Shown: positions 622 to 64,000 of the stretch, in pieces
Numbering within the stretch: the stretch's first letter is position 1
Layout: every line of letters begins with the position of its first letter
Notes under the pieces: generated by a model
Seen by the model: the letters and a program-made list of their open reading frames with translations, nothing else
What the model was told of the DNA's origin: nothing
The model's database searches: none
Position numbers and translations under genes: made by a program
Source: Cyanidioschyzon merolae
Lineage: Eukaryota
NCBI GenBank assembly: GCA_000091205.1
Contig: AP006499.2
Reading direction: 5' to 3' (one strand)
DNA length: 64,000 nt

Positions 622-1166
622 CCACGCGTCTGGAGTCGCATCCTCGAACTTGATGGTCATGACTCACCAGTTCATTGCGAGTATCCGTCGAGGACACTAA
701 AATGTCGGGGATTGGATGCATATCGAGAAACCACGCGTCTGGAGTCGCATCCTCGGACTTGATGGGTATGACTCACCAGTTCATTGCGAGTATCCGTCGA
801 GGACACTAAAATGTCGGGGATTGGATGCATATCGAGAAACCACGCGTCTGGAGTCGCATCCTCGGACTTGATGGGTATGACTCACCAGTTCATTGCGAGT
901 ATCCGTCGAGGACACTAAAATGTCGGGGATTGGATGCATATCGAGAAACCACGCGTCTGGAGTCGCATCCTCGAACTTGATGGGTATGACTCACCAGTTC
1001 ATTGCGAGTATCCGTCGAGGACACTAAAATGTCGGGGATTGGATGCATATCGAGAAATCATGCGTCTGGAGTCGCATCCTCGAACTTGGTGGGTATGACT
1101 CACCACTTCATTGCGAGTATCCGTCGAGGACACTAAAATGTCTAGAGGTTGACTCCGCGTCTGGAT
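622..1166. repeat. Tandem satellite, ~109-nt unit, ~5 copies (last copy divergent)
   Basis: Unit starts ('ccacgcgtctggagtcgcatcctcg...') recur at 622, 731, 840, 949 and 1058 with >90% identity. Confidence 0.85.
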
Positions 1167-2219
1167 GAGTCACCGGCGGAGCCGCTCATCCCTGGTGGTA
1201 TTTCCTGCGCAAACACTTTCCAGGAAATCATCTGGGAACGTGATTCAGGTCGGTGTCACGCAACATTTTTCAGATGTCTTTTCGCAGGATAGACAGAGTT
1301 GCGGCTCGCTGTTGCCACGACTATCGATAGGGATGGTGCTGAACACCTGGTAAACATCTCCTCGAAACAGGAGTGTTGTTCCGAAGCCACAAGAATGCGC
1401 CGCCGCCGAGCGCCAAAACTCGAACAGCGCACCTCTCCTCGTGATCCAATACAGGCTCAAATTTTGGGGAAAGATGCAGTATGCACGAGAAAACGGCATA
1501 CGCATGCTTGGACTAGATGTTTAAACGGGAAAGCGCGAGGGCCTGCCACACGCGACGTTTTTGAGCGCCACACCGCACGCTCTAATGGCAACACCCCGAA
1601 TATGGCAAAGCAACATGCGCGAAACTATGGCGCTGGACCCGACAGCTACAATGGCGAACAGCTGACTCAGACCTTTGCACTGTACGTTCCGACCTGTGCA
1701 TCGCCGCAGCTACGCAAAAGCTTCCGCTTCTGTTCCGAAACTGTGATCACAGGTCTTGCAGTGCTGCCGATCGCGAAACGCATAGCAGGCTGCGAGTCGA
1801 GGGGCAAGGTACCAGAGGCTGCCCTTCCCGGGCAGCACCAGGCCTCACACACACGGACGAGGGTGAGGTTTCCGTATCGGGCGCGTACAAGAGGCAAGCG
1901 CTTCGCCTGGGCCGTACAGCGTAGAGCCTACGGAGCCACTTGTGTCCCGGTTCTGTGGCGAGTCAGAAGCAGTCGTTTTGGCTGTGAACCCGCGCTGCTG
2001 GGCACTGCGAAGCGTCGAGTGACGCGCACTTCGAACGCCGCGGGTACTCTCCAGGGTGCAGGCGGGCGCTTGTTTTCAATACCTACCGACCGTTCGGAAC
2101 AGGAGCGTAGACACGACGACCAAGTGATCGCTCCCAGTCGGCCAGACGGCTACCAAAGTTTGGCTGCGAACGGCACCTGCTCACAGTACTAGCAGCGCAG
2201 GGGTAGCGACACCCGTGTC

Positions 2220-4844
2220 ATGAACCTGTTCGCAGACCCGCCTTTAACTGCATTCGTGAAGGCGCTTCGTTCGCACCAGCACGAGGAGTTGTCTTTTGTG
2301 CAAAAGCAGCTTGAGCTGCTTCGAAGCGAGTGCGAGGACCGCGATCCGGAAAAGAAAGCCTGGGCCTTGCTGAAGCTGACTCACCTGAACCAGCACCTAC
2401 TAGCAGGCGACCTATCGTTCACCGCTTTTCCTATCGTGGAAACAGCCACTCGGTCTGTTCTATGGCAAAAACAGGTCGGATTGCTTGCTGCGAGTCTGCT
2501 CTTCCATTCTCAGACTCCGGAGACACTGCTACTCGCGAATCAATTGAGAAAAGATCTTCACAGTGGCAACCGCAACGAACAGGCGCTTGCGCTGACAGGG
2601 TTTGCGGGTTTCGCCTCCGCGGACCTCGCTGAGGCTTTGTGGCCCGACGTTGCAGCGCTGTTCACGAGCGCTCGTCCGTACCTGCGTAAGCGAGCAGTGG
2701 TCGCCTTCCATCGCAGCGTTCGTCAGTGCCCAGAGGTGCTGCCAGCGTGCTGGCCTCGCTTTGTCAACCTCCTGCAGGACGCCGACCCTTCCGTGGTCTG
2801 CGCATCAGTCACCGTTGCACTCGAAGAGGTGCATACGTATCCAGAACTGTTTATACAAGTGATTCCCCGTTTTTATGAAATCGCCAGCCAGGGCGGTAGC
2901 AATTGGTTGCTCATCAAAGTCCTGATGGTTCTCGACGCTCTGTGTGCACATGAACCGCGTCTACCAAAGAAACTCGCATCTTTGGTGACAAGCATGATAG
3001 AGGCAACCCAGGCCAAGTCGTTGGTGTTCGAATGTTGCCGAGTCGCATGTCGTCGCTTGGCCGATGACGGCCATTTGCTCTGTGTTGCCATTGCTCGTCT
3101 AATTGCGTTTGTTGAGGGTACCGATCAGAACCTTCGATACTTGGCGCTGAAAGTACTCCGCAATGTTGTCGAGTACCGGCCATCGATCATTTCGCAGAAA
3201 CAGTTGCAAGGCGTTCTCAACGAGTTACAGAACAACGACATCCTGGTGCGGCTTGCAGCGCTAGAATTGCTTTCGAGCAGAGTGCATACTGCCGATGACT
3301 TACGATGCCTGGCTCAGAGCATGGAGCGGATGTCGCTGTTAGAGCCCGCACCGGGGCGGGCCCCGAACCGGGACACATCCGAGGAGCTGCGATTTCGCTC
3401 GATGTTGTTCAGTGAGCTGTGGCGATGCATTCGAAGGGTGTTTCCGGATGGATCCACTGATCTGGCAGAGGCAGATGCAGCGTGGTTGCTTGTGTCCATC
3501 GTTCGCCCGGCGCTTGTTCGGGCATCACAACTCGATGAGAAAAACGTGGAGCGGTTTGCGGTGTTGCTTTGGAAGCTTGTTCAATTACATGAATCGCTAC
3601 GCGGATCTGCAGCGGCTGTGTGTCGTCAGGTTCTCGACCGCTGCCTCTCGGAATCACACGATTGGATCCGGTACTACGGCGCTATTCGAGTTTGTGTTTG
3701 GATACTGGGCACCAGTCTTGAAGGTGTGAACGACTCGTCTCGTGCCGCCAATGACCTGGAACGACTCACGGGACTGTTCCAGCTTTTCGAATGCGTACGC
3801 ACGGGCGACGAGGAATTGGACAGTTTCGCAGCACTCCAGACGACGGTGCTGCGAACATTGCGCTTTTGCTGTGAGCATTTGCAGGCTGACTTTTCCTTGC
3901 AAGTCAGAGAGCGCCTCCAAAGAATCGTTCTATTGAGTCCAAGCGCCTTTGAGGAGCACTGGCGCCTCCTGGGCATCCAGCGAGACGTCCAACGCCGAGC
4001 GGGAGAGATCACTCGTCGCAGCGCCCCGCACCCCGGGGCACTCCAAGCGCTTTTGCGTTCGCTGCCCGCTCTCTCGTCACACGAACTATCCGAGTGTTGG
4101 GCTGATCCGCACGACTTGCCGCCACCGACACCGACACCAGCGATACGTCGACCACGAAAGCATTCGGAATCACAGGGCGCATCTCGGAGTGGCAACAATG
4201 CCGAGGCGGCGCTCCTGCTGCTCGACACCGTCGACGCCAATGATGTCGTACGTGCGCCGCTGACAGCACTGCCGTACAGGTCCGCTGCGCCCGCAAGTGC
4301 AACAAATGAATCCAGGGGCGAAAGAGACGCGAGCAGCGCGCATCCTCTGCAAGCGTCAGCGAGTGCGGGATTCACCACCGCATCTGATGTCTGGGCAGCA
4401 CATCGTTTCGCGAGTGCCCCCGACGACACCTCAACGGATGCCACAGGAATGGAGGCAGCGGGAGCAAGCGCCCGCTCCACCACCGAGCTCGAGCACCTCG
4501 CATTCTACCTCCGTGATGCACCGAGCGCGCACGCACACGCACGACACGCACACGCACCAGCAGCCTCCGTGCCCTCGAATCAGCAGGCTGCTGATGCGCT
4601 CTCGATCGGCGCCAGTCTGCAGGGCAATGCGTGCACCAGGCATGATGCGATGCAGGGCGCACGCATCGCAGGTACCAGCGATGCCCCGGATGATGCCCTG
4701 TTGATTGACTTTTGTGCACCGTATGCAGCAATCGACGGTGGTGATGCTCCTGCAGGTGATGATGCACCATCTACGACCGGGGCTGACAACTTGGGACCGG
4801 GTCGGTGTGTTGCGACCCCGGAGCATACCCAAGCAGCAGTGTGA
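2220..4844 (+). CDS. AP3D1: AP-3 complex subunit delta (adaptin large subunit); C-terminal low-complexity His/Ala-rich tail
   Basis: N-terminal half aligns with adaptin N-domain motifs: 'NQLRKDL', 'ALTGFAGF..ADLAE', 'RPYLRKRAV', 'SNWLLIKVLMVLDAL..EPRLPKKL', 'KSLVFEC', 'TDQNLRYLAL'. These match the AP-3 delta family. Confidence 0.7.
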   Translation: MNLFADPPLTAFVKALRSHQHEELSFVQKQLELLRSECEDRDPEKKAWALLKLTHLNQHLLAGDLSFTAFPIVETATRSVLWQKQVGLLAASLLFHSQTPETLLLANQLRKDLHSGNRNEQALALTGFAGFASADLAEALWPDVAALFTSARPYLRKRAVVAFHRSVRQCPEVLPACWPRFVNLLQDADPSVVCASVTVALEEVHTYPELFIQVIPRFYEIASQGGSNWLLIKVLMVLDALCAHEPRLPKKLASLVTSMIEATQAKSLVFECCRVACRRLADDGHLLCVAIARLIAFVEGTDQNLRYLALKVLRNVVEYRPSIISQKQLQGVLNELQNNDILVRLAALELLSSRVHTADDLRCLAQSMERMSLLEPAPGRAPNRDTSEELRFRSMLFSELWRCIRRVFPDGSTDLAEADAAWLLVSIVRPALVRASQLDEKNVERFAVLLWKLVQLHESLRGSAAAVCRQVLDRCLSESHDWIRYYGAIRVCVWILGTSLEGVNDSSRAANDLERLTGLFQLFECVRTGDEELDSFAALQTTVLRTLRFCCEHLQADFSLQVRERLQRIVLLSPSAFEEHWRLLGIQRDVQRRAGEITRRSAPHPGALQALLRSLPALSSHELSECWADPHDLPPPTPTPAIRRPRKHSESQGASRSGNNAEAALLLLDTVDANDVVRAPLTALPYRSAAPASATNESRGERDASSAHPLQASASAGFTTASDVWAAHRFASAPDDTSTDATGMEAAGASARSTTELEHLAFYLRDAPSAHAHARHAHAPAASVPSNQQAADALSIGASLQGNACTRHDAMQGARIAGTSDAPDDALLIDFCAPYAAIDGGDAPAGDDAPSTTGADNLGPGRCVATPEHTQAAV

Positions 4845-12293: not shown

Positions 12294-12512
12294 AGTGCGC
12301 GGTAATGTATCTATCAACCCCCCACTCCCAAGTTACATTACCTGCACTTCTTCTCGGATATTCTGGTCGTTTCGTACGTCCAATCGTGTGCCTAGTGCCT
12401 GCCGAACGCGACAGCAATAGCGCCTATAGCGCCGGTACGGTCGCTGCACGGAGACAGAACGGCGTTGCTGTACCACACAAAGGGCGCCGGCTCGAGGTCG
12501 AGTGTGTGGGTG

Positions 12513-17829: not shown

Positions 17830-20560
17830 AATTCGTGAGGCGACTTGCGCAACAAGAATACTCTGTCGACGCCCGGCATTCATAGCTATCCACCACATGC
17901 ACATTCCGCAATTCCCCGCACTACTGTTTGGTGGTTTCTTCCTGCACCGAACGTTGGACAAGAGCTCGGATGCTTGGCTCGCGCATCCCGGTCTCCGAAC
18001 CAGATGGCTGTATCTTGGCCACCTGGCACCAGCATGGGTTGCAGATCCCATGGATTGCATCCTGTTCGAATATGGGGCGGACGGCACCTCAGTCGCTCGT
18101 ACCCGGAACGAGCTCTGCGCTTTAGTCATTCAGGAAGAACGCTTAAATGCGCTCGCAGATACGTTTTGTAAGCCAAGTCCGTCGTCTCGCATCTGGTGAG
18201 ACGAGCAGTCACATGCTCTGTCTGTTGAATCTTGTTTTTTGCGTGTTCCTCGTGCTGTAAACGAGCCTCGCCTCGAGGCCGTATCTTCTGCTTCGGTCAA
18301 CGGCACGTATCTGACCCTGGGCTCGAGTACGCGACGGCGACCAGGTCCAGAATACCTGGCTCTTGGCCCACGAGTCTTTCGTAATTTTTCAGAGGCGGGA
18401 GGCTTTCTTCGTCTGCCATTTGCCCCGAGATATTCGGCGATGCGCTCAGTTGAAAGCTAGAACCGAACCCATCCGAGAGAAAATGGAAACTGAATGCACC
18501 GTTTCTGGTTTCGGCTGCTTAGATATTAAGGTTTTCGCGTTAAACCTTCCTCTTCATTTCCTCACTCGCTTTCCTTTCATTCTCAGCATGCCGTGGCGTC
18601 GTAGAATGCCCACGACACTCAAGTAAGTTAAAGGAACGTAACCAGTGATGAAGCCACGCTTTGTAGACAAGAGAGTGTACGTCGTGGGGCGTAGTGTACC
18701 TCTTCTGTCTTGTGCATCCTATTTTCGCCGGGAATTTGAAGCATTTACACACTTTTCTACCAATTCGTTTCACAGCGAAAGAGGCCAACGCTTCTTGGAA
18801 GAATGTCTCAGAGACATGCCTTGGGGAATGCATCTCTTCACGTCTTCCACGATCTCTGCCGCCAAGTTCAGCTTCGAATTACTTGTTCGGTCACTCGGAC
18901 GGAAGCGAACCTCGAGACTTTCGAACGATCCCGCGGGTACGACACAGGAAATCTCTTTTTCTCTCTCCCGAGGCTCTCTTTATTCATTTTCCATACTCCA
19001 GCTTGATCGAATCCTATCTAGGAACGACCACCCGTTTGTGGCCGCTCCGCTCGCCCGAGCTTCGGCCTTCTTGCATCCGCGTCCTCTCAGTGTCTGTTCG
19101 AAGCGAGATAAACGATCATGTGAACAGCGTCCGTCATCGCAAGCGAGAATCCCCAGAATGTGCAAGATCGCAAGGGCGTAGGGTTCCCTTCCCAGTCAGT
19201 TGCCTAAGGTAACTTTAAAACGGGAACGAGACACTTTATATTTCTTGGCGATGATGGTCTTGCAGGGAAGCAACCAGCTACATCTCGGTGAAGCGAACTT
19301 CCCCTTGGGTCACTCGCTCTCGTTCGTCATCCTCTCTCTCCCCAGCTCGAGTCAGACGGTACATTTTTTCTGTGCACCACAGGATGTGTTACACTGGTCC
19401 CAACAGCATAATGTCTTTCTTCACGTGGAAACATACCTTGAATCTCTAATTTATTCGAGAAAACCGAAGACTCGATACGTCATTTTGTTGCTCCAGAGGA
19501 GCTGAACCAGCTTTGCACAAGCGCTGGTGTATGGACGCTGCACTCGGTAACGACGAAATGGAACACACCTGGTCGCAGTGTTGCGATTTCTTTTCCGGGT
19601 TTTTTCAATTGTCCCGCCTTCTTATTCGAAACCCAGAAATAGGAACTTTCGGATTGACACGAACAATACGTATACATGGTTGTCGACTCGGAGAGGCCCC
19701 TTCGATTCGTAGCCATTGGAATTCCGTAGCTCCCGGGAATCACGATGATTCGCGACGCTCTCGAACAAGAATTCGTAAAATAACCTATACCATGATGCAA
19801 TGCATCCGTGCATGCCTCGAGTCATCTTGTATTTGCTAACATGCAGCATGTTCGAATAACGCATGCTTCATGTTTCGATCTTTGTGTCTCGAGGCAACTC
19901 GTCGGCGCTAGAATACGTGCCGCTGGATTGACGACACAAAAAAAAACGCGACATCGTTCATTGACGACTTGTTCGCAAGCTCGTGCTGAAAGTTTGCTGA
20001 GCAATCAAAGTCTAATAATCGATTCCATTCGATTGAAAAATCCTTCTCGGTTTACAATCATCGATGAAACGACATTCCACGTCATCTTGATATCTTGTAT
20101 GATGTATGGTTCCAGATGCTTCCGTCTTCGCATTTTGTACGGAAAACCGTCTTCGACTCGGACTTGAGTTGCCATGGCGATCGCTTCCGCTGGCGAGGTC
20201 GTCATTGCTCTGTATGATGCTTGTGGAACGGATCGAAAGATCTCTGTTTGATCGCCAACCTGGATTTTTCTTCCAGTACTTGTTTCATTGTGGACCAGAT
20301 CTCGTTCCACTAGCCCTCTATCGAATAGAACAGTGTACGCGTCACGGGTATCGCCCAGACGAAGCCCCTGGTTATAGAGTACGGCATCGAACGCGGAAGA
20401 GGAGGGCAGCATCAAGCCGATCCTCGTGCATTCGTCAAAGGAATGTACCAAGCGATAAAACAAGCGTTTACGCGCCACACGGCGACGCCGTGAGCAGGAG
20501 AAAGTGTACTAGACTCCTAGGAACATCTCACCACAGCCAGGTGTCACCAATACGAGGCGC
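17830..20560 (-). pseudogene. Degenerate TnpB/Fanzor-like copy 2 (multiple frameshifts/stops)
   Basis: Minus-strand ORF pieces are collinear with copy 1. 20005-20478 'FDAVLYNQGLRLGDTRD..LVERDLVHNETSTGRKIQVGDQTE..KMTWNVVSSMIVNREG' matches '[58 protein letters not shown]'. 19480-19800 'IIVIPGSYGIPMAT' matches RuvC-I '[14 protein letters not shown]'. 18540-18833 'QKRYTTPHDVH' matches '[10 protein letters not shown]'. Confidence 0.4.
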
Positions 20561-20912: not shown

Positions 20913-21791
20913 TCAAATTGCTCGATTGGGATCCTGACTGCGCGCAGAAGCTGCACTTTGTTCGCTGGTGAACGCCCTGCCAGAGGCTGGTTTCCGAGGC
21001 ACACCCCGCGTGGCCTCCGTCAGCCAGCCACCACCCGAGTCCTGGCCGTGACCGCTCGAAACCGCACTCGAGTTCATCGTTCGCCGTGAAGATGCGTCAG
21101 TGGTCGGCTCGATGTACTGCGCTGCGGGAGCCGAAACTCCACCCTTCTCCAGTCCGTCTGCCTGGTCGGTGTCCTCAGTGCCGGACGCTTGGCGTTTGCC
21201 CCAGAACCAGCCGCGCCCCGTTTTCGTGGACCCGGACGATGCTGATGCGGCCGCTGTGGTGTGCGTTGGGCCCGCATCCGCCGCAAACTCATGATTCTTG
21301 CCAAAGAAGACGTTGAGGAAACTGAAAGAGACGATGACGGCCCCAGATACAATTAGGAGCACTTTGCTCACGGTATCGCTGTCGCTAACACCAGCCGTGA
21401 TAGCCAGCGAACCGGTGAACATCTCGAACAAGCCACGTCCCCAGCGCCCTTTCAAGAACCCGAACGGGCGGAAAAAGAAACGAGGCCGACCGATTTCACC
21501 AAATATAATCAGCAAACCGAAAAACGCGACATACAGCATCACAATGAAGCCCAGCGGGTTGCGCAGCGCCTGTGCTGCTGTCGTGAAAAGCGTCACGAGC
21601 CCGAAAACTCCGGTGAAAACGAGAAAACCCCCCGAAACCACTGTGCACCACCGGAGCACTGTGCTTACCTTCCGCAGATCAGCCTCAAAGCAAATGCAGT
21701 TCTTCATCGAAACGAGCCCAAAACGTGCGATGAACGACGCCGACCGTGTACAGCAGTGGCGAACCGTACGCCCTGGACAGACCGTGTCCAA
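20913..21791 (-). CDS. Multi-pass membrane protein (possibly COPI-associated/TVP15-like); true start may be M at 21709
   Basis: Hydrophobic helices 'GGFLVFTGVFGLVTLFTTAAQ', 'GFIVMLYVAFFGLLIIFGEIG', 'LLIVSGAVIVSFSFLNVFF'. GC-rich like host genes. Lies directly between the two Fanzor-like copies. Confidence 0.35.
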   Translation of the reverse strand: MDTVCPGRTVRHCCTRSASFIARFGLVSMKNCICFEADLRKVSTVLRWCTVVSGGFLVFTGVFGLVTLFTTAAQALRNPLGFIVMLYVAFFGLLIIFGEIGRPRFFFRPFGFLKGRWGRGLFEMFTGSLAITAGVSDSDTVSKVLLIVSGAVIVSFSFLNVFFGKNHEFAADAGPTHTTAAASASSGSTKTGRGWFWGKRQASGTEDTDQADGLEKGGVSAPAAQYIEPTTDASSRRTMNSSAVSSGHGQDSGGGWLTEATRGVPRKPASGRAFTSEQSAASARSQDPNRAI

Positions 21792-24265
21792 CTGACGTGT
21801 AGACGCCTCCCCGTCTTTTCGGACCGGGCATCCACCACTGCTTCCAACTTCTTCTCATATAATTCCACTTTTAGAGGTTGTCCAATAAAGTTCTCTCTTG
21901 TCCAATCTGGAGGTCTTTCCTCCAGCACCGCACATTTCCTTATATGGATAGCGGCATTGAAGTCTCGGTTCACATACTCCATCCGTTTTTTGTTGCCATT
22001 GATTGTACGAACAAGCGCAAGGAGTCCACGAACGTTCGCCCTTCTTTCCATTTGCTCCCCCGTCATCGGTCCGTGCTTTGCTATTTCCTCAGGGCTCCGT
22101 TGGCACTTTTCTATCTCCACTCTCTGAAGTGTACACCCCAGTTCCTGGTGTGTATACGATGTTCGAAACTCATCTACAGGTATCGTAACAAAACGCCTTG
22201 CGCACGCCTTGTACACCCTCGTCGTTGGAGCTGGCGTAGTTCCTTTTTGGGTCATCCATCGTCCTGCCCCGTACGCTACAACCAGCCTTTGACTTTCATC
22301 CTCCTTCAGGACGCTCAACTCATTGAAAAATTCGCGAACGCCCGCTGGTTCCCACAATACAAATTCATTCGGAAACGAGCCCACCGGGGCTTGGTATACT
22401 CCTCCCACAGCGCATCCCAATGGGCAACACGAACTTCCATGAATTTCCGAAAAGCTTCAAAGTCCGCTCCACGGCTCGTCATCTCGCTCAGAGCTTCCAG
22501 GTGATCCTTCATTCCATGTCTCGACTTTCTTCCTCGCATTCATTATACCGGATTCTCGATGGTATCTTGCTCTCGAGAACCTCAAAAGACGCATGTCTTT
22601 CTGACGAAAGTTGCCCTCAGTACCATCTTCCGCACGCTTCGGTGCTGTGATGGTGATGATATTTGTGTTTCCGGGGTCCGCGCCAACAACAAAGTCGTTA
22701 TCCTGCACTTTCTGTGTCACAGGACCTGCCTTCTTGGTTTCTTCATGCTTCTCCGCGTAAACGACATGCACGTTATCCTCCACCTCCTGCGTCGCAGGAT
22801 CCACCTCCTTCTTTTCTTCATCCTTCGCCGCGTAAACGACAAGGTCGTTATCCTCCACCTCCTGCATCGCAGGACCAGCCTCCTCCCTTTCTTCATGCTT
22901 CGTCGTGTCAACGACAAGGTCGTTATCTTGCACCCTCTGCGTCGCAGGATCCGCCTCCTTCTCATCTCCATCCTTCGCCACGTCAACGACATGCACGTTA
23001 TCCTCCACCTCCTGCGTCGCAGGACCAGCCTCCTCCTTTTCTTCATCCTTCGTCACGGGCGCAGCTGAGGGAGGGACTGGCCGATCTGCCTTCAACCGCC
23101 GATAGTGTACACACAAGGCTACTCCATCGGTTTCGATCATTCCAGTGAATATCTTTTGTTTGCCGACTTTGAGCCGTTTGAAATCGAAGATATTCTTCCA
23201 GTACGTCTCCCGGTTTTCGCCGGTGAACTCTGTCCTCCTTACATCGAACTCCGGACTGATCTCCTTCATGATGCCGTAAAGGATTCTGGAATCGATGCTC
23301 ACAAAATGTGACTTGATGTTGCACATTGGAACCACGTTGAAGCGCTTCCCCATTAGGACAGCCTCCCGTCTCTCACACGCTTCATTTTTTTCCTCACTCA
23401 GCTTCGTTTCTGCCTTGCGTTCGAGCTCTCAGTCCAGAAACACGAAATATCGCAGGACGAGGCGATAGTATCTTTTCTTATCTTTTTTCATCTCTGATAT
23501 CTTGTCTGTTGGATTCACGAGCCCCAAGACTGCACGGTGCTCTTGTATAGCCGCACGGATTCCAGAAGCTTCATTCGTGAACTAGTTTGACGCTTTCTTG
23601 TCAACGATTTCGACCTCATCTTCACGCTTGCCATCTTTCGTGATGCCATTGATCATCGCCCATGTTCCTTTGCGAGATAGGCCCGGGTAGAGTGCAAACA
23701 CGGCGCGTATCATGAAACGTTCGAGGTTCACTGTCAAATGGTTCTTCAGGTTCGTGATGTACTTCATCGCCCCGTATATGTAAAAATTCGAGTCGCCCTT
23801 GTATCGAGTACCCTCGAAGCGGATTTTGGCGAAGTTTTCGTGGAGGTGCACTAGCACATTTTCCCTCCGCGTTTTCTCTCCACCAAGCATCAGGTGTCGA
23901 ATAAACGTCTTGTCGAAAAACTCGTCCGGAATCTCGACCGTTTCCATATCCGTCACGTCGCGATACATCTCCCTTGCCAAATGCATCAGTCCTGACGACG
24001 CCTTGACAACAATCTTGGAGTACGAGTCGACACGTTTTTTGATAGCGTCTCGCAACTTTTCCCTGTAGGGATCCTTGATATGTCCAAGACGAAAGGTTTT
24101 CACCACCTTCTCGTCGTACAGTCGTCTCTCGTGACGCCTTCGACGTAGGGCCTCCCCCTTTCGGTTCTTCTTCTCTCCCTGTTCTTCTGGACTCGGCACT
24201 GTTTTTTGTTTTTTTCTAGCAGCCGGCGACCATGGCCCTCCAGGATCGTGGACTTGCTTTTTCAT
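21704..24265 (-). CDS. TnpB/Fanzor-like RuvC nuclease (near-intact copy 1); ORF segments 24265-23582, 23353-22457, (22539-22315), 22420-21704 in different frames, probably joined by introns
   Basis: N-terminal basic NLS-like 'ARKKQKT...[17 protein letters not shown]'. RuvC-I '[18 protein letters not shown]' (D at about 22676-22678). Zn-ribbon-like '[35 protein letters not shown]' (HCCH). RuvC-III '[12 protein letters not shown]' (D at about 21962-21964). Confidence 0.55.
22676..23050. repeat. In-frame 75-nt x5 tandem duplication inside the Fanzor-like CDS, ending in the RuvC-I motif
   Basis: Minus-strand protein units '[25 protein letters not shown] / [25 protein letters not shown] / [25 protein letters not shown] / [25 protein letters not shown] / [25 protein letters not shown]'. 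Confidence 0.85.
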
Positions 24266-24582
24266 AACTTTCCTTTTATTAGTTTTTTTTTGAAAAAGAA
24301 CCCTCTTTGAACCCTTGTGTTATATACTGCGAAAAAACACTTGACTAGACTTGTTTGAGGTTTGAAGCAAAAACGAACTGAAAGACTGTACTTTGCCACG
24401 TCTTTAACGCAAGTACAGCTTGCACATTAGAGCAGCACGCTATTGATCAGGATCGCGTTTCCCTTCAACGGCGACAAGTGCGTCGCATCAGTTGACTGCC
24501 CGATCTCCCAGATGCGCTCAGTGAGCGCGCTGGGCGCATCGCCCCGTTAAAAACGCGCAAAGCACAGTGCCTCGACACAAGT

Positions 24583-35546: not shown

Positions 35547-36821
35547 TCATACGAGAACATCTGCACCCGGAGGAAGAGGCGCTCCCCGATTCCCCGACGA
35601 CACGGTATGTGTACACTCGTGCGCAGCATCAGCCGTAACGTCTTGCCGTACCGGGTAGCCGTCTGCGTAGTAGACGCGCTCGAGGCATAGTCCGTGCGCC
35701 GGAGCAGGTTTCACCCGGGGCGCAATGAGCGCACGCCCTCGACTGCCTTGCTGCAGCGCATCGACAACAAGCGCATCATCTAACTCGCCTCGAGCGACTG
35801 CGAGAAATGTTCCCATGATGTTCCGAATCATCCTGTAAAGCGCACCATCGAGCTCGAACTCGAATTTCCACACAGGTACAATACTATCTACGGGGGATGG
35901 CTCGACCGAGATTCGTCGGATCGTTCGTACCGTTGAACGCTGGATCTGGTGGCGATCGGCCTTTCCCGGTGGGCTGCTTGCGAACGCTCCAAAATCATGT
36001 GTTCCTACGAATGTCTGCAACATCTGTTGCGCTACCGCCCAGTGCTGCATCTGGCGGTAATCTGTGTACGCGTAACGATGGTAGAGCGGGTCGATCCATG
36101 CACCAGCAGAAAGGCGATAAACGTAGCGTTTGCCTTGTGCTCGGTAGATTGCATGCCAGGGCAGCAGCTGGTACGTTCGTGTCGAGGGTACAAGATACCA
36201 GGCCGGCGGCGGTGAGACCTCCATCGCTCGTACCTGAATCGTTCGGGGAAGGAGTCGATTCAGGGCATGCTCCAGTCGAGATGGCTCAAATGCGGATGTA
36301 GCGGCCTTCTGCTCGGGAATATCAAAGTGTATGACTTGGCCTCGAGCATGAACACCAGCGTCGGTGCGTCCAGCACCGACTACCTGGCAGTGCCAGGGAT
36401 AACCTCCGAGACGTTGTTGCAGGGCCGCTTCGAGTCGGCCCTGGATCGTTGGTGTCGCTCGTGACTTTGCCTGTCGCTGAAAGCCGTGAAAGTCGGTGCC
36501 ATCGTAGGCGACTACAGCTCGATAGCGCACGAGGTTCTCTGTCGATGGTGCGCTACCCGCGTTGCGAGTAGGCTGCTCACCGGCGAGGCACGCAACCGGC
36601 GACAAGTGACTGCCTCCGGGCAGCCAGCAACGGCGCTCTCGAAGGCATCGCCAGAATTGGCCTAGCCTCGACGCGTGCACGACAAGAAGCAAGCGCTTCT
36701 TTTGCAACTGCGGTCGAGTGACACTCGTAACCCAAGCAGGACGTTTTTTGAGGTCGCCCAGTGCTGCTGGGAAACGCACCTGCTTTGAATCACTAGAGGC
36801 ACTGTGAAACTGGAGTTTCAT
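35547..36821 (-). CDS. tRNA pseudouridine synthase, TruA/PUS family
   Basis: 'YRAVVAYDGTDFHGFQRQ' and 'GAGRTDAGVHARGQVIHFD' (catalytic Asp motif). Confidence 0.7.
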   Translation of the reverse strand: MKLQFHSASSDSKQVRFPAALGDLKKRPAWVTSVTRPQLQKKRLLLVVHASRLGQFWRCLRERRCWLPGGSHLSPVACLAGEQPTRNAGSAPSTENLVRYRAVVAYDGTDFHGFQRQAKSRATPTIQGRLEAALQQRLGGYPWHCQVVGAGRTDAGVHARGQVIHFDIPEQKAATSAFEPSRLEHALNRLLPRTIQVRAMEVSPPPAWYLVPSTRTYQLLPWHAIYRAQGKRYVYRLSAGAWIDPLYHRYAYTDYRQMQHWAVAQQMLQTFVGTHDFGAFASSPPGKADRHQIQRSTVRTIRRISVEPSPVDSIVPVWKFEFELDGALYRMIRNIMGTFLAVARGELDDALVVDALQQGSRGRALIAPRVKPAPAHGLCLERVYYADGYPVRQDVTADAAHECTHTVSSGNRGAPLPPGADVLV

Positions 36822-38962
36822 ATATACATGATCAGTGAAACAAAAAACGTTCTACGACTTTTGAGGGTAAAACTATATCAACGCGCAGAAGCTTCCCAGT
36901 TTGTTTTTCGTACCGGCCGACTGCTATAGGCTTCAGCTCCTCCTGGTAAATCTCGAGAATCAGGGGCTGCCCCACGAGCTCTGATCGCCTAACCTCCTCG
37001 GGTCTTGTCTTCAGCGTCGCCCATGTCCTGATATATGAATGGCGGCGTTCAGGTTTTGTATTCACGAACTCCATGCGTTTGCGGACCCTGGTTGAACGCA
37101 CGAATACACGGAGTCCTCGAACTCGTGCCGCCTGTGCCACTAAAGTCTCGACATACTCCCGTCGAGTAAACGCCTTTTCTCACCCATGTCCGTTCCTGTT
37201 CTTCTTATTGGTCAAATGGTCTGCTTCGCTCGGTGGTCGGCGAGGAGGAGGATTTTTCCTTTTTCAAGCATCCGGGGATGACAGGCCGTCAGGATCCGTG
37301 ACCTCCGTGTCCATAACTTTCCCCTGGATTTTTATTTCCTCAAAACGAACGCATCCCTTTATGCCGTTCGATGAGGACCTTCCCGGAGGCAGAAGGACTT
37401 GCGGAATAAAGACGACCGGTGCCGCTGGTTTCACCGTGGGCTGTACGCCTCAGCGATTCGCTCCGTCGACCGATCATTACACTTCACGATGGAAAACACG
37501 CCTGCGACGGGGATGGACCACGGAGTGTACCCAGGAATGAAAAGCAGCTCTACTCTCGATAGAATCCACAAAAGTTCGAATGCAATGGGAAAAGTCTCCA
37601 ACGATTAGGGAACGGCGTGCTGTTGTATGAGTCTTCTCTACGAGCGAAACTGAGGCCGCCAAATGAATCCACTGCAAATAGAACAGATGAAGAGGTCATT
37701 GGCCTCTTGGATTTCGATCCTACATAGAAAGGACTCCATCTCCACGAATACCCATGAACGCTCCCATCGCCGCGTCCGCAGAAAGCCTCATCGACAGAAA
37801 AACAAACCCCAGTCCCTGTGCTTCATATCGATGGTAACTTACCAGGAACATTGCTGTAGTTACGATTTCGGTCGAAGATGGCCGCGCTTGAACTAGGACT
37901 TTTGCGACTATATCCCAGTGTTTTCGAGACTACACGAAAAAGCTGGTGAGAAATAGAGACGCCCGTTGCGGCTGATATCGTCGGTTTCACCTACCCCAAA
38001 GTGAACAACGGGTCGCCTTCGACCATCTTTCGCAAGCAGTCTATGAATGTACCTGTTTTGGCGCGGAACGCATATACTTGGTCCTTTCAGTGTTCCTCAT
38101 CCAGCCGAGTCCATTGGTATGACTGATCTGAGGGAGGAATGCAGTCCTCATTGAACTGTTCACTAGAGCATATATCTAGACGCAATGCGTCTACGATCTA
38201 TCGAGTACATCGCATAGCGATTTCGATCTCGTGCTATACACCGCAGCAGGGATGAAACAGTACTGCGTTGGAAGGCTATAAGAAGTGATGCTCCGTAGCG
38301 TTAAGCGAAACCGCGGCGCCTCGACCTGGCGCGCGTCATTCGCATCACCTGCCTTTTAGAGAATAAGCTATCGATGAAGCCTCGCTTTGACAGAAATGGG
38401 GCGCGCTGTGGTGTGTTCGACACCCACATTGCGCTTCTTGACAAACGTCCCAAACGAAGACCATTTGCGTTGACGCCGTACCGACGACGCGAAGCGCCCA
38501 GCCAGCGGATCCGTCCTAGGCCTCGCTGGAGGGCGGCGCCTCCTTTGAAACGGCTCCGACCAGCTACGGCTGCAACAGCCGTGCACGTTCAGGAGCGCCC
38601 GTGCAACGCGTCGTCAAGTCGCCGGCGTCGAATGCGTGTTCGCTCCGACGGCTGCCTGGAAGCTACTTGGGCACGCCACTCTACTCAGTAAAGTGACGCA
38701 CTTCAGTCAATGTCATCCGGTGCATACGCGTTTACCAATAGTTCATGGTGAGAGGCGCAGCACGTCTGCATGTTCGGTCGACGATATCGCAACCGCAAGC
38801 ACACGCGATCCCGCGCAGAAAAGCCTTCCCTGTCCCTCTGCATCGGAACGAAATATCCGCGCAGAAATGTCTTCTCGCATGGTGAAGCGCTTCGCTCCCG
38901 AACGCAGTGCGTCAACTGCAGGAATTGCTTCCCGCCAAGTGCGCACGCGCGTGATACGATAC

Positions 38963-63093: not shown

Positions 63094-64000
63094 TTTCTCT
63101 CCGACGATAAAACGTTTCCATGGACAATGGGTCCCAGATTGTGAGATGGATAATGATTATCGAAAGAGCGTCCATCATGACGCACTTACCTCCGAGTTCC
63201 ATTACCTATACTTGCTTCCAGATGTACTGGTCGTTTCGTATGTCCTATCGGTCACAGAGTACCTGCTTTGGGCGCCTGCGGTAGCGCTTATATATCGCTG
63301 ATGCCGATGCATCACGGAGACAGAACAGCGTTGCCATACCGTTGAGTTCGCTCGGGCGTACTGTGAAATGTTTGGCTCCCTTCCCAGTGTCATCAATACC
63401 AACCTTTGCAGGCTTTTTCTGTGACCGTTTCCCGTCGCTTTCTCTTATCCCTGGCTTGACATGCACCAGTCTCGCCTTTCTATCAAGAACAGCTGTCCAG
63501 TGTCGAAGGACGTTGATCACAGCGTTCAATGGCCGACTTGCCGCTTCAGGCTGTTGTCGACGCATACCATGCACAGGTGAACGTTGCGATCTATGCTTCG
63601 CTTGCGATTTTCATCTTCCATGGATAGAGCTTCGGTTGCCCTGTCGCAGATTTGGCACGTCCGTGTAATCGGATGTTCGCATATGTCCACCACACCGCAT
63701 CCTCCGAGGTGCACCCTGTTTCACGTGAACACTCGCGTCGTCGCTCGCTACGTACCCGTGACGAATACGAGAAATCGTCTCGATGCCTTCCTCCATCTAC
63801 GCGCTCGGTGCAGTACCCTGGAATCACGGGCTTCTTCTGTGCGATCCAACTGCCGCTGCTCTGGCTGTTGCAAGCACGTGTTGTACTATTCTATAACGGA
63901 CTTATCGAAGACGATGTATTCAACGACGAAACTATTACTTGAAGCAAAATCAAGGCTGGACAAGAAGGCAGGGAACCTCGATCTGTCCATGGTCGCTTCG

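Follow-up and report, generated by a model that had tools for sequence, protein, structure and literature searches.

The window analysed here is a stretch of 64,000 nt from Cyanidioschyzon merolae (contig AP006499.2 of assembly GCA_000091205.1), and three proteins encoded in the flanks of the locus under study are exact matches of the C. merolae 10D entries BAM81962, BAM81963 and BAM81972. On the minus strand, immediately upstream of a gene for a COPI-associated protein and in the same orientation, lie four open reading frames (ORFs), 23582-24265 (227 aa), 22457-23353 (298 aa), 22315-22539 (74 aa) and 21704-22420 (238 aa), which were initially interpreted as segments of a near-intact, spliced TnpB/Fanzor-like nuclease gene. 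Both these ORFs and the motifs quoted from them in the original prediction are present in the sequence. The features recognized at the locus are the following, in the direction of the element:

21732..24542, minus: whole element, one CMe-1A copy, core unit only (DNA homology to 80 related loci and consensus alignment)
24266..24542, minus: 5' leader preceding the ATG of the Fanzor gene, homologous to consensus 646-905
23585..24265, minus: ORF segment 1, basic NLS-like N-terminus and first helical part, aligning to CMe-1 residues 1-227
23582..23584, minus: premature stop TAG; AGG (Arg) in the consensus, K/E/R in the aligned relatives
23429..23431, minus: premature stop TGA; CGA (Arg) in the consensus and aligned relatives, within 'FVFLDRELE'
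22677..23057, minus: tandem array of five 75-nt units, coding for an acidic repeat of 25 aa, after the 'ETDGVALC' strand and before RuvC-I
22676..22678, minus: catalytic Asp of RuvC-I ('GADPGN'), encoded by GAC; no variation in alignments A1 and A3
22330..22515, minus: out-of-frame segment, defined by global alignment to the consensus
22169..22171, minus: Glu of RuvC-II ('VDEFRTS'), encoded by GAG and relocated as in other Fanzors; no variation in A1 and A3
21965..22168, minus: equivalent of the NUC/TNB domain without the CxxC...CxxC zinc ligands (weak PF07282 match)
21962..21964, minus: catalytic Asp of RuvC-III ('NRDFNAA'), encoded by GAC; no variation in A1, conservation of at least 90% in A3
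21773..21775, minus: site at which the family has its stop codon (consensus TAG), mutated to CAG here
21732..21931, minus: 3' tail, comprising the ORF end and about 40 nt past the family stop position (alignment A4)

Identity and extent of the element

The CMe-1A/Fanzor1 family entered the literature in 2013, together with a DNA consensus and a protein sequence (Bao & Jurka, 2013, Mobile DNA 4:12, PMC3627910), and the novelty implied when the locus was first noticed has to be set aside. CMe-1A was described as a transposable element with a consensus of 3169 bp and about 150 copies that match it at about 80% identity, without terminal inverted repeats (TIRs) and with a single-exon gene for a Fanzor1 protein of 734 aa, CMe-1 (Bao & Jurka, 2013). 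According to the same authors, copies that are still intact exist, and copies with an open frame of about 734 aa and an intact terminal hairpin would be the candidates for activity. In blastn searches consensus positions 646-3145 aligned to positions 24531-21738 of the window in two segments, one of 1557 nt (85.5% identity) and one of 1034 nt (86.6%). The same consensus interval, aligned globally, was 87.2% identical over 2517 aligned positions, and the published CMe-1 protein could be aligned to the window product over its residues 1-734. Homology at the DNA level with 80 related loci, none of which is syntenic with the window, starts at up to position 24542 and ends sharply at 21732, and the element is thus larger than the ORF. 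A second, word-indexed homolog search with a diverse alignment returned further Cyanidiales copies only.

The copy shares organism and family with the published element, and its protein has a single-exon layout, a basic stretch at the N-terminus and the family's catalytic motifs; a search for terminal inverted repeats at the element found none, as in the published description. It differs from the consensus in the four additional 75-nt units, the two nonsense codons, the two frameshifts, the lost stop codon, a degraded 3' terminus and the absence of the 5' 635 bp, which the consensus shares with TE-N2_CMe. Fragments similar to TE-N2 were detected at 63102-63346 and 12328-12497 of the window, away from the Fanzor locus. 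The start of the copy at around consensus position 646 indicates a 5'-truncated or differently headed copy rather than a separate family. At least four different modules were found upstream of the leader among the relatives, so the 5' end of the element cannot be placed. In one subfamily of relatives a 5' palindrome was observed. Altogether, the locus very probably represents one copy of CMe-1A, the Fanzor1-bearing transposable element of C. merolae, in a decayed and non-functional state.

The reading frame and its interruptions

The ORFs belong to a single underlying frame, which runs from an ATG at 24263-24265 to a TGA at 21704-21706 and is interrupted by mutations. When the stops were removed and the frame was corrected, the translation retrieved 44 homologs with a best score of 1159 bits, a result far beyond chance. 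The conceptual product has a length of about 827 aa, in place of the 760 aa first estimated, because it carries five of the 75-nt units compared to one in the family consensus; the extra repeat amounts to 300 nt (four units) and is in-frame. Four units are present in L089, an independent metagenome contig from a strain that is 97% identical. This acidic region is predicted to be disordered: in P0001, the closest intact relative, the corresponding residues 374-470 have an AlphaFold pLDDT below 50.

The two nonsense codons (TAG and TGA) are single-base changes of Arg codons. The out-of-frame segment, which had been taken as a 'frame-B bridge' between two coding segments, is flanked by a deletion of 8 nt (around 22515) and a deletion of 1 nt in a run of T (around 22330), and in the relatives the equivalent region reads 'WN(A/S)GMK(D/E)HLEA...RAFANFFNEL' in one frame. 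Owing to the loss of the family stop codon, the frame continues to the TGA at 21704-21706 and overlaps with the start codon (ATG) of the next gene. The relatives and the consensus read through every one of these breaks.

The original prediction explained the changes of frame by short introns, whose removal would connect the ORF segments to encode a catalytically competent nuclease, a reading which takes account of the proximity and order of the segments and of the survival of the three catalytic motifs. In the proposed introns, however, the intact relatives P0001, P0002 and P0004 encode residues throughout, the interval 23354-23581 is homologous coding sequence with nonsense codons rather than an intron, the published consensus is single-exon, and the two deletions relative to that consensus together with the two Arg codon substitutions fully account for the frame changes and the stops. 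Only a few dozen introns are present in the whole genome of C. merolae. The coding homology inside the proposed introns refutes the intron-containing gene on sequence grounds, and any probability left to it is negligible.

It could also be supposed that the organism carries an intact gene and that the stops and frameshifts arose as errors during sequencing or assembly, in favour of which one of the deletions lies in a T homopolymer. This is exceedingly improbable as contig L089, which is 97.3% identical to the window copy over 3008 nt with a single gap, has ORFs that end and start at the same places, meaning that the breaks are not sequencing errors; besides, the two nonsense codons are substitutions and not indels, and among some 60 distinct related copies the majority show breaks of the same kind.

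The description of this locus as a near-intact and apparently catalytically competent copy is thus not supported, as the frame contains two nonsense codons as well as two deletions that shift it, and has lost the family stop codon. The decay is moderate, with three intact catalytic codons, a nearly full-length coding region and 87% identity to the consensus. Judged from its sequence, the window copy would be unable to make a full-length protein and is, with high confidence, best read as a pseudogene.

Relationship to Fanzor1 nucleases

Assignment of the encoded protein to a known family required a family profile. Pfam searches with the separate ORF pieces and with the joined protein gave only a sub-threshold match to PF07282 (E 0.23), a phmmer search of the C-terminal piece against the PDB gave no match, and the precomputed Pfam family on the homologs is a domain of unknown function (PF26935/DUF8286). 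With profile A1, hmmsearch against the PDB retrieved PpFz1 (1.3e-10), SpuFz1 (2.1e-7) and GtFz1 (4.2e-6) and no other matches, and in these alignments the DPG, DE-x-x-T-S and RD motifs coincided.

The fold was examined on P0001 and not on the window copy, to which P0001 is 76% identical (MAFFT alignment). A few intact copies such as this one, found on L004, occur in hot-spring metagenomes. The AlphaFold model of P0001 (pLDDT 79.9, pTM 0.78) produced seven Foldseek matches with E values of 0.001 or lower, all of them Fanzor1 proteins (E 6.5e-16 to 6.2e-14), followed by Cas12 proteins at E values of at least 0.02; superposed on SpuFz, the model reached a TM score of 0.70 (normalised to SpuFz). 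The solved structures of SpuFz1 (8GKH, 9CEU-9CEZ), PpFz1 (9CF0-9CF3) and GtFz1 (9CER-9CET) share the overall fold of the model (Foldseek E about 1e-15) as well as the order of motifs, namely a 'TDG' strand, the DPG of RuvC-I, 'DE(F/Y)xTS' and the 'NRD' of RuvC-III, at a sequence identity of 12-15%. On the basis of the profile matches, of the predicted structure and of the three catalytic codons that are intact in the window, the protein family of this locus is assigned to Fanzor1, and the anticipated TnpB/Fanzor-type RuvC nuclease gene is supported.

The motifs pointed out in the original prediction agree with this assignment. The N-terminus is indeed basic and NLS-like, with 'ARKKQKT' and a stretch of 17 residues, and the 15-residue stretch quoted as RuvC-I, the 15-residue stretch that includes the Glu codon and the 12-residue stretch of RuvC-III are all present. 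The RuvC-I motif matches 'IDPN' of SpuFz1, which holds D383, 'VDEFRTS' is aligned with 'LDEYKTS' of SpuFz1 and 'IDEFRTS' of PpFz1, and the RuvC-III Asp is aligned with 'WNRD' of the solved Fanzor1 proteins. The relocated glutamate of Fanzors (PMC11832414) and E541 of SpuFz1 (PMC10432273) have been described previously. As had been expected, the D-E-D positions correspond to the RuvC triad, with the relocated glutamate directly ahead of the NUC domain, matching the motifs with D383, E541 and D606 of SpuFz1 with a residue count that agrees within one position.

The degenerate state of the Zn ribbon was also correctly recognized, since no CxxC pair (C4 zinc finger, OrfB_Zn_ribbon) was found between RuvC-II and RuvC-III in the window product. 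Among 112 scorable sequences, i.e., top representative hits and added homologs having both flanking motifs, the zinc ligands are missing in 84 and kept in 17. The C4 zinc finger forms part of the defining motif of Fanzor1 (Bao & Jurka, PMC3627910) and is retained by SpuFz1 (PMC10432273), in contrast to the NUC domain of CMe-1A, which lacks this CCCC finger; Bao & Jurka nevertheless classified CMe-1 as a Fanzor1 in spite of this absence, so the loss of zinc ligands represents a departure at the level of the clade and not a reason for exclusion. Other differences from the characterized Fanzor1 proteins are the long disordered acidic repeat before RuvC-I and the lack of flanking inverted repeats, which in Spu-1 elements measure 30 nt.

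TnpB of IS200/IS605 elements (ISDra2) and Cas12f belong to the same RuvC superfamily, and by analogy with TnpB, which is likewise carried by transposons, a guide RNA would be expected from the 3' end. The structural match of the P0001 model to Cas12f is weak (E 0.09-0.3), and compared to bacterial TnpB the protein is eukaryotic and larger, has a relocated glutamate and an NLS-like tail, and no TnpA partner was seen. The dN/dS values between copies of the family (0.3-0.5) indicate that the protein was under selection for a long time, although the copies existing today are mostly dead, and in the RuvC half codon positions 1 and 2 are more conserved than position 3.

The 3' end, the insertion and their implications

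The 3' tail is conserved between copies (alignment A4) and may, by analogy with related systems, be regarded as a candidate scaffold of a guide RNA (omega RNA). In the family, 352 related stretches were confirmed, and additional ones matched a pattern. A sliding conservation profile did not reveal raised nucleotide conservation in the tail, column-pair covariation and helix scans were dominated by noise with no clear winner, and no match was found in Rfam. RNAalifold produced no consensus structure for this region, also when run through ViennaRNA, a weak negative as an obvious conserved hairpin also gave nothing. Just beyond the tail the relatives have terminal or subterminal hairpins of several unrelated sequence versions (z -0.8 to -6.0), which recall the right ends of IS200/IS605 elements; in the window copy this structure is degraded or lost (z +0.96).

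The remnant ends 25 nt upstream of the ATG of the COPI-associated gene. In a related species, the syntenic region (L083) leaves about 0.8 kb between the UQ_con and COPI_assoc genes, compared to about 4.2 kb here, and the insertion, judged from this sequence comparison, is lineage-specific. A search for target-site duplications by means of an empty site was unproductive, as L083, the sole insertion-free ortholog, is too diverged (about 68% protein identity) and all the near-identical strain contigs carry the insertion or break inside it.

The short distance and common orientation, along with the retention of the insertion in strains that are 97-99% identical, would fit a co-option of the remnant, either as promoter or 5' UTR of the COPI-associated gene or as the source of a truncated protein or guide-like RNA. 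This is very unlikely: the window copy shows no sign of constraint and has lost its terminal hairpin, the related species expresses the COPI-associated gene without any insertion, and in such a compact genome nearly every intergenic insertion adjoins the start of a gene.

The decayed CMe-1A copy very probably has the following history. An intact element is about 2.5-3.2 kb long, without terminal inverted repeats and with one intron-less gene for a Fanzor1 of roughly 734 aa, comprising a basic NLS-like tail, helical REC/WED parts, a split RuvC domain, the relocated 'DEFRTS' glutamate and a NUC domain devoid of zinc ligands. Judged by its homology to characterized Fanzor1 enzymes, such a protein would associate with a guide RNA transcribed from the element's 3' end and cleave DNA that matches this RNA. 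The copy in the window was inserted directly upstream of the COPI-associated gene in the same orientation and afterwards suffered the two nonsense mutations, the two frameshifting deletions, the loss of the stop codon, the expansion of the 75-nt repeat and the loss of the 3' hairpin.

A broader and rather doubtful proposal concerns the family as a whole. The Cyanidiales Fanzor1 proteins might be part of a large uncharacterised lineage of Fanzor1 (conserved 'VRGLLWC.ST...FVNRDxNAA') without the NUC zinc finger. The absence of inverted repeats, the structurally conserved hairpin at the end of the elements and the 5' palindrome of one subfamily might hint at a hairpin-dependent, single-strand mobilisation of the IS200/IS605 or Helitron type in a eukaryote. 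Among the few intact members known from hot acid springs, such as P0001 on L004, there could be RNA-guided nucleases that tolerate heat and work independently of zinc.

In annotations of the window, the locus is best masked or labelled as a pseudogene of CMe-1A/Fanzor1, and it is not a candidate for a programmable nuclease. For the mining of Fanzors it is relevant that zinc ligands, the usual hallmark of TnpB/Fanzor proteins, are missing in three quarters of the scorable top representatives (84/112), and the dN/dS of the family along with the existence of a few intact hot-spring copies may be useful facts at the family level.

Relation to the published CMe-1A family and to Fanzor1

One Fanzor1 family has been described from Cyanidioschyzon merolae, represented by the protein CMe-1 on the element CMe-1A (Bao and Jurka, 2013, PMC3627910). 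The CMe-1A consensus measures 3169 bp and stands for about 150 copies, about 80% identical to it; terminal inverted repeats are lacking, no target-site duplications were established, CMe-1 is a 734-aa protein encoded by a single exon, and the 5' 635 bp constitute a separate repeat, TE-N2_CMe (PMC3627910). When the consensus DNA, taken from the supplement of that paper, was aligned to the window, 24531-21738 corresponded to consensus positions 646-3145 with 85-87% identity (two blastn segments) or 87.2% (global alignment), and the alignment of the CMe-1 consensus protein to this copy spanned residues 1 to 734. An independent DNA comparison, against 82 related hot-spring metagenome loci, put the homology limits at ~24542 on one side and at 21732, a very sharp boundary, on the other; a search for terminal inverted repeats at the window element found none. 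The locus is a pseudogenised copy of the element family published in 2013. TE-N2_CMe-like fragments, sharing 78-80% identity with the initial ~250 nt of the CMe-1A consensus, were also detected at 63102-63346 (+) and 12328-12497 (+), where this part stands alone, distant from any Fanzor ORF.

The locus belongs to Fanzor1, and the original prediction of a TnpB/Fanzor-like RuvC nuclease was right as to the protein family, as evidenced by profile matches, the predicted fold of an intact relative and the aligned catalytic motifs. The joined translation has 44 homologs; P0001 (752 aa, 1159 bits), the top match with an intact frame, shares 68% identity with it by BLASTP when four of the five repeat units of the query are collapsed, and 76% with the full five-repeat translation in a MAFFT alignment. 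The family profile matched only three proteins in the PDB, all of them Fanzor1, from Parasitella (1.3e-10), Spizellomyces (2.1e-7) and Guillardia (4.2e-6), with the DPG, DE-x-x-T-S and RD motifs in line; at a cut-off of E <= 0.001, an exhaustive profile search matched 4697 representative proteins. P0001 was modelled with AlphaFold from a 40-sequence alignment (mean pLDDT 79.9, pTM 0.78), and the model gave seven Foldseek matches in the PDB at E <= 0.001, all to Fanzor1 (E 6.5e-16 to 6.2e-14; TM 0.70 against SpuFz, normalised to SpuFz), followed by Cas12 proteins at E >= 0.02 only. In the Spizellomyces protein SpuFz1 the metal ligands are D383, E541 and D606 (PMC10432273), and the Fanzor glutamate sits about 50 residues C-terminal of the canonical TnpB position (PMC11832414). 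The D, E and D of the window copy lie in motifs that align with those holding these three ligands, and the residue count from the alignment agrees within one position.

Reading frame of the window copy

All the ORFs and every motif of the original prediction were found in the window, and three-frame translation clarified how the ORFs relate to each other: in essence they form a single frame on the minus strand running from 24265 to 21704 (start ATG at 24263-24265, terminal TGA at 21704-21706), with the following features.

Features of the window copy relative to the CMe-1A consensus, and candidate catalytic codons
about 23846 and 21995-21999, minus strand: small 3-nt indels, in frame
23582-23584, minus strand: premature stop TAG (AGG in the consensus)
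23429-23431, minus strand: premature stop TGA (CGA in the consensus)
within 22677-23057, minus strand: four additional 75-nt repeat units, in-frame expansion
22676-22678, minus strand: candidate catalytic Asp codon in 'GADPGN', intact
about 22515, minus strand: 8-nt deletion, frameshift
about 22330, minus strand: 1-nt deletion in a T run, frameshift
22169-22171, minus strand: candidate catalytic Glu codon in 'VDEFRTS', intact
21962-21964, minus strand: candidate catalytic Asp codon in 'NRDFNAA', intact
21773-21775, minus strand: family stop lost (TAG to CAG), frame extended to 21704

Together, the 8-nt and 1-nt deletions shift 62 codons out of frame, and between ~22515 and ~22330 the coding sense is carried on in the adjacent frame. 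With two premature stops, two frameshifting deletions and a lost family stop, the gene is not near-intact as had been proposed. Neither are introns involved, since the intact relatives P0001, P0002 and P0004 as well as the published consensus encode residues across both stretches suggested as such, and the promise of a programmable nuclease does not extend to this pseudogenised copy. Sequencing errors were ruled out as the cause of the breaks by L089, a metagenome contig of a closely related strain (97.3% identity over 3008 nt, one gap), in which the ORFs end and start at the same places. Among ~60 distinct related loci only two or three maintain a full-length frame and the majority are disrupted in the same way. 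Exact fragments of the window ORFs are missing from a protein collection that includes NCBI, which indicates that the locus carries no gene annotation.

Genomic setting and element ends

The ORFs around the locus are long, intron-free and typically eukaryotic (adaptin, RHD3/Sey1 GTPase, Brix, COPI-associated protein, pseudouridine synthase), and three neighboring proteins match C. merolae 10D BAM81962, BAM81963 and BAM81972 exactly. The COPI-associated-protein gene, which has the same orientation as the element, starts at an ATG (21705-21707) located 25 nt downstream of the element's 3' limit (21732); as the element has lost its own stop codon, the TGA of the Fanzor frame overlaps this ATG (ATGA, 21704-21707). 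In L083, a locus from a related species (COPI protein 68% identical), the same neighbors, encoding a ubiquitin-conjugating enzyme and the COPI-associated protein, lie ~0.8 kb apart versus ~4.2 kb in the window, hence the insertion is lineage-specific.

A second, far more decayed Fanzor1 remnant occurs at 36880-37353 (-), with 44% identity to CMe-1 residues 647-728, a destroyed RuvC-III 'NRDFNAA' motif and weak DNA matches to CMe-1A 872-960 and 2849-2971. About 60 nt separate its end from the downstream pseudouridine synthase gene (35547-36821), which is oriented alike; this layout mirrors that of the main copy and the COPI gene. Separately, 19688-20339, within a low-GC patch at 18-24 kb (50-52% versus ~58% elsewhere), shows 65-75% similarity to the flanks of Fanzor copies in five unrelated metagenome loci (L001, L011, L017, L048, L078) and probably represents another repeat family.

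In relatives, the element extends 17-27 nt beyond the window homology limit and ends in a hairpin, of which several unrelated sequence versions exist (z -0.8 to -6.0; <= -1.75 in six of the eight tested); at the 3' end of the window copy this folding is lost (z +0.96). By analogy with characterized Fanzors, the 3' tail and hairpin would form a guide-RNA scaffold, with the flank supplying the guide. Examination of the 3' tail for such a scaffold revealed no consensus fold, convincing covariation, excess conservation or Rfam match. The terminal hairpin may just as well serve as a transposition signal at the DNA level. The first 6-10 nt past the hairpin are often alike, 'G(A/T/G)TGGTG' (many loci, e.g., L001, L013, L014, L020, L040, L058), so that the true terminus may be located slightly beyond the published consensus end or insertion may prefer a target motif. 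On the 5' side, where relatives display at least four different modules, one subfamily (L007, L021, L046, L050, L060, L064, L065) carries a perfect 12-nt palindrome, GGACACGTGTCC, ~40 nt upstream of where homology to the window copy begins; in combination with the 3'-terminal hairpin, some elements thus carry sequences able to form hairpins at each end.

Evolution of the Fanzor1 protein

The window copy lacks the zinc-ligand cysteines that SpuFz1 and TnpB retain as a CCCC finger between RuvC-II and RuvC-III. Zinc ligands were absent in 84 of 112 Fanzor1-like sequences carrying both flanking motifs (the scorable ones among the 150 top-ranking representatives and four further homologs), with CxxC...C..C kept in 17; no statement of this loss in most close representatives was found in the Fanzor papers examined. 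In place of CxxC...CxxC, these close representatives (among P0090-P0238, and in a family alignment) share a conserved 'VRGLLWC.ST...FVNRDxNAA' block.

The 75-nt in-frame repeat (22677-23057) is a fast-evolving disordered acidic linker within the protein: its 25-aa acidic unit falls in a region directly before RuvC-I predicted to be disordered in the P0001 model, and is present once in the 2013 consensus, five times in the window and four times in L089. Several units also occur in other copies, such as P0011.

Between family copies dN/dS is 0.3-0.5, and in the RuvC half conservation amounts to ~0.89 at codon positions 1 and 2 versus ~0.72 at position 3. It follows that much of the divergence among copies arose under selection on the protein, as was likewise argued by Bao and Jurka (PMC3627910).
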